DNA of 64,000 nucleotides from Escherichia coli. Its GTDB lineage: Bacteria; Pseudomonadota; Gammaproteobacteria; Enterobacterales; Enterobacteriaceae. The position numbers and the translations under genes are program-made. How positions within the stretch are numbered: the first letter of the stretch is position 1; each line of letters starts with the position of its first letter. The notes under the pieces were generated by a model, which was given only the letters and a program-made list of their open reading frames with translations, did no database searches and had not been told where the DNA came from. Where the stretch lies: NCBI RefSeq assembly GCF_003334385.1, contig NZ_QOWN01000002.1. One strand, written 5' to 3'. Shown here piece after piece: positions 46,149 to 46,864 of the stretch.

Positions 46149-46487
46149 AGGTAAAACTGACCGATAAGCCGCTTTCTTTTGGGTATAGTGTCGTGGACAG
46201 TCATTCATCTTTCTGCCCCTCCAAAAGTAAAAACCCGCCGAAGCGGGTTTTTACGTAAAACAGGTGAAACTGACCGATAAGCCGCTTTCTTTTGGGTATA
46301 GTGTCGTGGACAGTCATTCATCTTTCTGCCCCTCCAAAAGCAAAAACCCGCCGAAGCGGGTTTTTACGTAAACCAGGTGAAACTGACCGATAAGCCGCTT
46401 TCTTTTGGGTATAGCGTCGTGGACAGTCATTCATCTTTCTGCCCCTCCAAAAGCAAAAACCCGCCGAAGCGGGTTTTTACGTAAATC
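46149..46487. repeat. Three tandem 113-bp direct repeats, each with a copy of the rnpB 3'-terminal ~45 nt plus a GC-rich hairpin/T-run terminator
   Basis: aggtgaaactgaccgataagccg recurs at 46149 (variant aggtaaaact), 46262, 46375 and 46488 (true rnpB 3' end), an exact 113-bp period; each unit ends aaaaacccgccgaagcgggttttt. Confidence 0.85.
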
Positions 46488-46864
46488 AGGTGAAACTGAC
46501 CGATAAGCCGGGTTCTGTCGTGGACAGTCATTCATCTAGGCCAGCAATCGCTCACTGGCTCAAGCAGCCTACCCGGGTTCAGTACGGGCCGTACCTTATG
46601 AACCCCTATTTGGCCTTGCTCCGGGTGGAGTTTACCGTGCCACGGACTGTTACCAGCCGCGCGGTGCGCTCTTACCGCACCCTTTCACCCTTACCTGATC
46701 CCGCTTGCGCGGGCCATCGGCGGTTTGCTCTCTGTTGCACTGGTCGTGGGTTTCCCCCCCAGGCGTTACCTGGCACCCTGCCCTATGGAGCCCGGACTTT
46801 CCTCCCCTCCGCCCGTCTCCCCCGAAGAGGACGACGACGAAGCGGCGACTGTCTGGTCAGCTTC
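46488..46864 (-). ncRNA. rnpB: RNase P RNA component (M1 RNA), 377 nt
   Basis: Reverse complement matches recalled M1 RNA from 5' GAAGCUGACCAGACAGUCGCC to 3' ...GGUCAGUUUCACCU, including the GGGCAGGGUGCCAGGUAACGCCUGGGGGGGAAACC and P4 regions; the + strand ORFs the track calls here are antisense artefacts. Confidence 0.95.

Follow-up and report, generated by a model that had tools for sequence, protein, structure and literature searches.

A copy-number-variable tandem array of M1 RNA pseudo-3′ ends downstream of rnpB in Escherichia coli

The DNA considered here, a stretch of 64,000 nt of Escherichia coli from contig NZ_QOWN01000002.1 of assembly GCF_003334385.1 (hereafter the window), includes the garK-rnpB-yhaC region, in which rnpB, the gene for the RNA component of RNase P (M1 RNA), and yhaC are convergent, with a tandem array in the gap between them. 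The array (46118-46510) has a period of 113 bp, 3.5 copies and 96% matches (Tandem Repeats Finder, score 716) and overlaps the 3′ end of rnpB at 46488; rnpB is also the annotation in identical E. coli records. An original prediction, made from the letters of this stretch, had described a repetition of the rnpB 3′ end and its terminator at this period, and in that it is borne out, as it is in the plus-strand starts of 46375, 46262 and 46149, which are in register with 46488. On the rnpB strand a unit starts with AGATGAAT, and the gene and units are disposed as follows:

46488-46864, minus strand: rnpB (M1 RNA, RNase P RNA class A), a full-length match to Rfam RF00010 (318.6 bits, model positions 1-367)
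46438-46538, minus strand: unit 0, 101 nt, the last stretch of M1 with terminator T1, that is, the rnpB 3′ end as first member of the array
46325-46437, minus strand: unit 1, 113 nt, made up of M1-like block 1, an 18-nt linker (46398-46415), block 2 with the tail, terminator T2 and a spacer
46212-46324, minus strand: unit 2, 113 nt, with the anatomy of unit 1 (linker 46285-46302; terminator T3)
46117-46211, minus strand: unit 3, partial, about 95 nt (linker 46172-46189), with a decayed tail and a degenerate hairpin

The window thus carries three extra units beyond M1 and T1, all three of them with the M1-like blocks. No foreign DNA lies between these units or between M1 and unit 1, the spacing being 101 or 113 bp throughout, and the window has neither an integrase between rnpB and yhaC nor an island remnant between the units. 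What M1 and the units have in common is two blocks, the 21-nt block 1 (AGATGAATGACTGTCCACGAC) and block 2, the last 23 nt of M1 (CGGCTTATCGGTCAGTTTCACCT); the repeated part of M1 is hence not the single stretch of its last ~45 nt that had been proposed. Between the blocks M1 has AGAACC, whereas the units have the 18-nt linker GCTATACCCAAAAGAAAG, equivalent to two substitutions and an insertion of 12 nt. This makes the units disabled pseudo-3′ ends of M1: AGAACC is part of the universally conserved 3′ strand of P4, and since the linker stands in its place a unit is unable to complete an RNase P RNA, while its blocks still carry the 3′ strands of P2 and P1 and are followed by the A/U-rich tail found after the mature M1 end.

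Outside a 12-nt gap, unit 1 matches the M1 end at 96/101 positions. Units 1 and 2 are identical at 110/113 positions and unit 3 matches either of them at 94/113, its first 58 nt being those of unit 2 and decay setting in after that; the copies are therefore near-identical instead of exact. The G-to-A change attributed to the distal copy is present (AGGTAAAAC), but it is not the sole difference of unit 3, given the decay beyond the first 58 nt. The periodicity and coordinates of the array are real and far exceed what chance would give: for the 12-mer CTTATCGGTCAG zero occurrences are expected and four are observed, 113 bp apart. The sole motive for suspecting an artefact of assembly or collapse, or a chance similarity, was the proneness of tandem repeats to assembly errors, and that suspicion, to which we give practically no credence, is already refuted: several complete genomes, independent of one another, have a 1051-bp stretch in 100% identical form, and as a query this stretch is covered to at least 80% in 3214 genomes.

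Each intact unit also brings with it a terminator hairpin:

46455-46478, minus strand: T1, the intrinsic terminator hairpin of rnpB, AAAAACCCGC-TTCG-GCGGGTTTTT, an inverted repeat (-19.4 kcal/mol, z -3.9)
46342-46365, minus strand: T2, the identical hairpin in unit 1 (-19.4 kcal/mol, z -4.0)
46229-46252, minus strand: T3, the identical hairpin in unit 2 (-19.4 kcal/mol, z -4.5)

All three have a 12-bp stem and a UUCG loop followed by the U-tract UUUUUGCUUUU, and are predicted intrinsic terminators. The fourth hairpin, that of unit 3, is degenerate (-5 kcal/mol, z +1.2) and lacks a U-tract; accordingly, of the four tandem terminators originally envisaged, T1 to T3 stand and the last does not. 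Three strong hairpins in series thus separate rnpB from the convergent yhaC, and the symmetry of the T1 hairpin suggests that it may terminate in both directions.

Across E. coli the array varies in copy number. The 1051-bp query matches 5426/5426 complete genomes in spans that differ, with the shortest span in 8/29 of the chromosomal rows sampled. The rnpB-yhaC spacers of representative genomes measure 613, 507, 387, 227 and 106 bp; these differences are of whole units, all in one register (L001-L006), and the representative genomes have 0, 1, 2, 3 or at least 4 extra units. O157:H7 ATCC 35150 (L005) has none, its M1 and T1 joining directly to GCTTTTGGTGCACAGGGTA-AGATGAATAAATATC; FDAARGOS_772 has at least four, and other strains have one or two. 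Some E. coli units are 120-122 bp long with a longer hairpin, and in two genomes (L002, L004) a distal unit has the tail and long terminator that are found on M1 itself in E. albertii and the cryptic clades. Queried with one unit, 5399/5426 genomes give between 1 and 9 places each (median 2), and these places are all chromosomal but one. In an evenly spaced sample of 60 records, one place was found in 26 records, two in 7, three in 8, four in 14 and five in 5; the 60 rows sampled for this query coincide with rnpB or with unannotated DNA. The K-12 strain MC4100 has the 113-bp unit at 100% identity. A profile search of the 64-kb window gave matches at the array only, and the candidate of a mobile repeat scattered over the genome was set aside, the matches being confined to the rnpB flank. 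The array is thus a true copy-number polymorphism of a single locus, as the window profile indicates, and is dispensable, since there are strains with zero extra units; the earlier suggestion that it is a substrate for copy-number change is upheld by this comparison of strains.

Related arrays occur well beyond E. coli. We scanned one genome for each species with a single pattern accepting a linker of 6 nt or longer, which gave 120 loci among the matches listed. The exact pattern detects tandem pseudo-units directly after rnpB in 25/120 of these loci, with linkers of 17-19 nt, periods of 93-126 bp and up to six copies; the arrays include those of Escherichia whittamii, Citrobacter, Klebsiella pneumoniae, Cedecea, Phytobacter, Atlantibacter, Lelliottia and Buttiauxella. 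With a profile of the unit core, arrays are recovered in 50/121 loci (the 120 among the matches listed and the window), nearly all of them in Enterobacterales; this adds Kosakonia, Raoultella, Pluralibacter, Superficieibacter and, among Erwiniaceae, Pantoea, Erwinia and Izhakiella. The profile finds no units in 71/121 loci (~59%) among the matches listed, and Salmonella arizonae and many other species have no pseudo-units after rnpB. In Salmonella enterica subsp. arizonae (L064) the terminator hairpin looks split by ~21 nt (AAAACCCGCTTCGGCG-CTGAGGGATCCCCAGTAATGG-GCGGGTAAAAAA). A further set of contigs (L115, L050, L075, L020, L023 and L026) carries enterobacterial rnpB ends or arrays under foreign labels, namely Microvirga (289 bp), Alkalicoccobacillus (264 bp), Chryseobacterium, Porticoccaceae, 'Proteobacteria' and 'Gammaproteobacteria MOLA455'; these are probably cases of contamination or mis-binning.

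The widespread form of the unit is AGATGAATGACTGTCCAC-TCC-GCTTTCTATGAAAGAACG-CGGCTTAYCGGTCAG, in which the M1-like blocks are nearly invariant and the insertion is moderately conserved (GCT.T...AA); this insertion, of 12-13 nt, is common to the units of Enterobacteriaceae and Erwiniaceae. A hairpin of -9 kcal/mol or better lies at most 75 nt after 202/212 M1 or unit ends. There are two or more length classes of these hairpins, and their alignment is poor; terminators of at least two types, short and long, are mixed within arrays and common to several genera. The spacer from a terminator to the next unit is ~15-25 nt in every species, its sequence not being conserved. Units bear the M1 tail of their own species, in keeping with concerted evolution: the tail after M1 and that of the first unit have a median ungapped identity of 0.84 within species as against 0.42 between species. 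In Atlantibacter sp. RC6 (L085) a pseudo-unit without the 12-nt insertion (…CCACGACAGAACCCGCCTTATCGG…) lies ~99-150 nt past the M1 block, which suggests either a fresh duplication of the M1 end or conversion across the linker.

This comparison bears on whether the units might encode small basic peptides. In the window, open reading frames (ORFs) of 38 codons (MNDCPRRYTQKKAAYRSVSPGLRKNPLRRVFAFGGAER and a second frame) are present in units 1 and 2, with a Shine-Dalgarno-like GGAGG 9 nt upstream of the ATG; as 113 leaves a remainder of 2 on division by 3, they are chained by ATGA stop/start overlaps, which the 101-nt and 113-nt units both retain. However, of 42 species compared, 16 have a stop after 9 codons, 7 have no ATG and only 7 show the Shine-Dalgarno-like motif; the linker, at 17, 18 or 19 nt, puts the identical nucleotides beside it into different frames; and with periods of 93-126 bp the phase is not constant. 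Moreover, each ORF passes through a strong hairpin terminator, and none of the six E. coli records inspected in this orientation has a gene placed there by the NCBI pipeline. The 38-amino-acid ORFs are thus not conserved and coding is largely refuted; we consider it most improbable.

Selection at the level of RNA might instead be invoked: in transcripts reading through T1, the units could provide additional places for RNase E entry or for processing, or could mimic the 3′ strands of P1/P2 as decoys and so steer the read-through RNA towards decay, or they could give rise to a small RNA. Near-invariant blocks, a tail and hairpin kept across ~15 genera and a partly conserved insertion (GCT.T...AA) would be in keeping with this. 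Against it, conversion from M1 suffices to explain the conservation of the blocks; the inter-unit spacer is not conserved; and a possible CUUUC/GAAAG mini-hairpin in the widespread linker, read by eye, is absent from the version found in Escherichia, Citrobacter and Klebsiella. Rfam 15 gives no match at gathering score besides RNaseP_bact_a (rnpB), a permissive scan returning only terminator-like or REP-like (repetitive extragenic palindromic) sub-threshold matches, and a consensus scan finds no promoter-like site inside the units. Zero-unit genomes are also common, at the above 8/29 sampled E. coli rows and 71/121 loci. We therefore rate a selected RNA element as improbable, if less so than a coding role.

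Along with the terminator, the repetition multiplies a sequence of a different kind, namely the 12-mer CTTATCGGTCAG, as an attachment (att) core:

46496-46507, minus strand: att core CTTATCGGTCAG inside M1, the 12-bp crossover core (attB) of islands of the flk-islet type
46383-46394, minus strand: att core copy 2, in unit 1, matching CTTATCGGTCAG
46270-46281, minus strand: att core copy 3, in unit 2, matching CTTATCGGTCAG
46157-46168, minus strand: att core copy 4, in unit 3, matching CTTATCGGTCAG

An annotated tyrosine integrase adjoins rnpB in ~45 complete E. coli genomes. In TUM1887 (L127 19696-30235) and ECC-1470 (L128) a 9-kb island between rnpB and yhaC encodes a 486-amino-acid tyrosine integrase, a YagK/YfjJ protein, an invertase, an alternative flagellin and a flagellin repressor. 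It matches the published flk genomic islet, which is excised by its 'Orf486' integrase through flanking direct repeats (PMC3378880). The attL and attR of both genomes have CTTATCGGTCAG in common. The attL reads M1...CGG-CTTATCGGTCAG-CTTCAAC|island, a junction implying that the island replaces the last M1 nucleotides and the M1 terminator: island-joined M1 ends …GGTCAGCTTCAAC and the native end is …GGTCAGTTTCACCT. The attR reads ...GATGCCTGACGTATGGTTGATTTTTCCTGA-CTTATCGGTCAG-TTTCACCTGATTTACG, after which come native T1 and then, at once, the 113-bp units. The P arm of the island (…GATGCCTGACGTATGGTTGATTTTTCCTGA|CTTATCGGTCAG) is a diverged mimic of M1 length. We rejected the notion that the units are relics of this island family, since its arm does not resemble the unit linker and does not match block 1 plus linker.

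In other genera comparable inserts are seen both at M1 and within arrays. At two loci, in Buttiauxella and Cedecea, a second partial M1-like copy lies 3-5 kb downstream, the two copies making up attL/attR pairs. The M1 of Buttiauxella sp. B2 (L096) ends ...CGGCTTATCGGTCAGCTTCAAC straight into foreign DNA, with the displaced CGGCTTATCGGTCAGCTTCAAC and the native terminator 5 kb away, and in Cedecea sulfonylureivorans (L028) an insert of this kind lies within unit 1 instead of M1. Ten loci from at least six genera (L096, L028, L007, L031, L034, L041, L048, L069, L100 and L112) have a conserved left end of the element, TTCTTCTAAAACAATACGTTGGTGTGTCTCAGG..., attached at one and the same position, in seven of them to M1 and in three to a terminal pseudo-unit. 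The cargo of these inserts includes PAAR and type VI secretion system (T6SS) DNase-effector-like proteins; at the junction of one locus there is a fragment of a tyrosine recombinase, and most of the locus fragments show no intact integrase. The absence of a hairpin after the core was tried as a marker of integrated islands and fails, the left end of the island itself forming a hairpin. Thus, every unit duplicates the crossover core of islands that target the rnpB 3′ end, and this core is in active use. Since each unit has the core, the array may offer secondary att sites that spare rnpB; unit cores may serve in this way, as is seen in other genera, and by extension could do so in E. coli.

Taken together, these features are in our view best and quite probably explained by a dispensable, copy-number-variable minisatellite of M1 pseudo-3′ ends that gives the locus spare terminators and spare att cores. 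Briefly, we propose the following. The array would grow and shrink by unequal homologous recombination or replication slippage between units, and its M1-like blocks would stay M1-like by gene conversion from the adjacent, strongly constrained rnpB. Between yhaC and rnpB, which is heavily transcribed and converges on it, the array may supply back-up termination, possibly in both directions, and any transcripts reading through T1 would repeat the tail sequence found after the mature M1 end. Local duplication of the M1 end fits both the 97% identity of the K-12 units and the AGATGAAT microhomology flanking the zero-copy allele.

Several observations weigh against this account. First, the identity between the M1 tail and the first-unit tail is bimodal, at or above 0.9 in 18/39 species and below 0.6 in 16/39, because short and long terminator types are mixed within arrays; such a pattern is as compatible with terminators having been imported or displaced as with local duplication. 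Second, the insertion has no counterpart in M1, and its sharing by two families is hence not explicable by conversion from M1, such that drift plus conversion do not by themselves account for it. Third, all E. coli islands among the matches listed (15/15) adjoin M1 itself and none lies in a unit. Finally, a simple consensus terminator scan did not flag T1-T3, probably owing to A/U pairs that extend the stem into the U-tract.

The first two of these points also bear on a different origin, in which the units began as products of site-specific recombination: an island would give M1 a new tail and terminator and leave behind a displaced, attR-type rnpB 3′ fragment, the island interior would later be lost, and repeated rounds would build an array that expanded locally afterwards. 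The rnpB 3′ end is a proven integration site at which the displaced native tail and terminator stand in series with the units, and islands occur in pseudo-units as well. The mixture of two terminator types within arrays across genera, the bimodal tail identity and the presence, in a distal unit of E. coli L002 and L004, of the ancestral long terminator, which in E. albertii and the cryptic clades follows M1 itself, all point the same way; an insertion shared by two families is likewise easier to explain if it was carried by mobile DNA. A model of this general kind is set out in the Islander work (PMC4383910). Yet the one island family characterised has a P arm of M1 length, unlike the unit linker; independent interior deletions would not yield the uniform ~15-25-nt spacer of every species; the 97% identity of the K-12 units speaks for recent local duplication; and the window has no integrase or island remnant between its units. 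On balance we regard such an origin as unlikely, though worth keeping in view. A broader proposal, that the pseudo-3′-end unit is an old, maintained rnpB module of Enterobacterales tied to site-specific recombination, either made by rnpB-targeting elements or kept as a secondary or decoy attB, we put forward only tentatively, with slightly more favor. If it were true, the flk islet and T6SS-effector islands could insert and excise while sparing the 3′ end and terminator of an essential ribozyme, and integrase-mediated exchange between cores could change the copy number.

Returning to the minisatellite and its surroundings in the window, the following features adjoin it:

45985-46116 (about), strand not assigned: palindromic element of the REP/BIME (bacterial interspersed mosaic element) type between unit 3 and an older relic, by sequence reading
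45910-45984, minus strand: old decayed copy, made up of the terminator-region relic GCCATCAGTTTCAAACCCGCGTCAGTGAGTTTTTGCTTTTGGTGCACAGGGTA (45931-45984) and then the degenerate unit start AGATGAATAAATATCTACG (45910-45930); repeat families D2 and D3, with comparison to O157:H7 (L005)
44687-45874, plus strand: yhaC, convergent with rnpB, from the ORF list and the annotation of an identical record
46872-46900, minus strand: promoter-like site GTGACA-17-TATACT (consensus scan, 10/12 matches), with only a presumptive function

The feature goes beyond the extent first assigned to it, 46149-46864, and continues past unit 3 through the REP element and the relic to the degenerate unit start, which adjoins the yhaC stop codon; zero-repeat alleles likewise close with a spacer and a degenerate unit start. 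Within the REP element, 46015-46102 has sub-threshold Rfam matches to ES036/CssrF (REP-derived; 32.7 bits vs a gathering score of 37.6) and to naRNA4. The element is absent where the last unit joins the relic directly (L004). In FDAARGOS_772 an IS110-like IS621 transposase is annotated just past the array (L006 ~1150-1496), and as the REP/BIME of this strain is broken at …GCAGAGATGGCGTAG|ATACTGTTATGG, IS621 appears to have inserted into it. The promoter-like site stands directly upstream of rnpB and overlaps the last garK codons. On the other side, E. albertii, E. whittamii and cryptic-clade Escherichia lack the yhaB-yhaC block (window ~43935-46150) as well as the REP element and relic, and their terminal pseudo-unit abuts tdcR-side sequence. 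That yhaB-yhaC might be an island lodged between unit halves was considered and discarded, there being no M1-like direct repeat at the far end of the block. A literature search pairing rnpB with yhaC gave no match, and searches on the processing and termination of the rnpB 3′ end brought up no usable account of T1 as against T2.

For the window itself all this means little, the array being a classic element of rnpB in K-12 and, it seems, a dispensable one. In practice, copy-number polymorphism at rnpB is a trap for short-read assembly and mapping and a possible typing marker. If the wider picture is upheld, (i) an essential ribozyme gene of enteric bacteria would be a hot spot for islands with flagellar phase-variation and T6SS effector-like genes; (ii) the integration of islands would rewrite the last nucleotides of M1 and its terminator; and (iii) many species would bear arrays of disabled M1 ends, each with an att core, which makes spare-site buffering of essential RNA genes a testable idea.

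It remains to set the array beside known systems. Repeats of 113 bp in the 3′ flank of E. coli K-12 rnpB were reportedly described by Reed & Altman (1983, PNAS 80:5359), and we take the window array to be, very probably, that same K-12 repeat. As reportedly described, the K-12 repeats agree with those of the window in locus, 113-bp period, a copy number of ~3.5, M1 3′-terminal sequence, terminator and short ORFs, and nothing sets the window array apart from them. Hence, the feature as flagged is very probably already known, and the flk islet with its direct repeats has also been published; what is added here to the K-12 description is the P4-disabling insertion, the dead fourth hairpin, the polymorphic copy number, the wide family and the overlap with the att core. 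We know of no prior report of the cross-genus family of arrays, of the disabling insertion or of the coincidence of unit and att core, though their absence from the literature is not established.

Like a variable number tandem repeat or minisatellite, the array has head-to-tail units of high identity and whole-unit differences between strains at one fixed locus; unlike these, its unit is a fragment of the adjacent essential RNA gene plus a terminator, is kept similar to that gene and recurs across genera. As with the fail-safe tandem terminators that follow highly expressed stable-RNA genes, three strong hairpins, identical and each with its U-tract, stand in series behind an RNA gene with strong transcription and between convergent genes; in this case, though, it is a duplicated portion of that gene that provides the redundancy, which is not required, being missing from many strains. 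In the Islander model, islands integrate at tRNA and tmRNA genes and displace the native 3′ fragment (PMC4383910). The rnpB islands of TUM1887, ECC-1470, Buttiauxella and Cedecea resemble this in that the 3′ end of a small stable RNA gene is targeted and restored, the native fragment is displaced and the att core is shared; the differences are that the window units lie 113 bp apart without island DNA, that the arm of the characterised island is unlike theirs and that the target is rnpB rather than a tRNA or tmRNA gene. E. coli H3/H47 strains, in turn, are known to carry the flk genomic islet (Feng et al. 2008, cited in PMC3378880). The islands found between rnpB and yhaC are like it in the 486-amino-acid 'Orf486' tyrosine integrase, the alternative flagellin, the flagellin repressor and the direct repeats. 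The islet is absent from the window, and its sole tie to the array is its 12-bp core, present there four times, once in M1 and once in each of the three pseudo-3′ ends.

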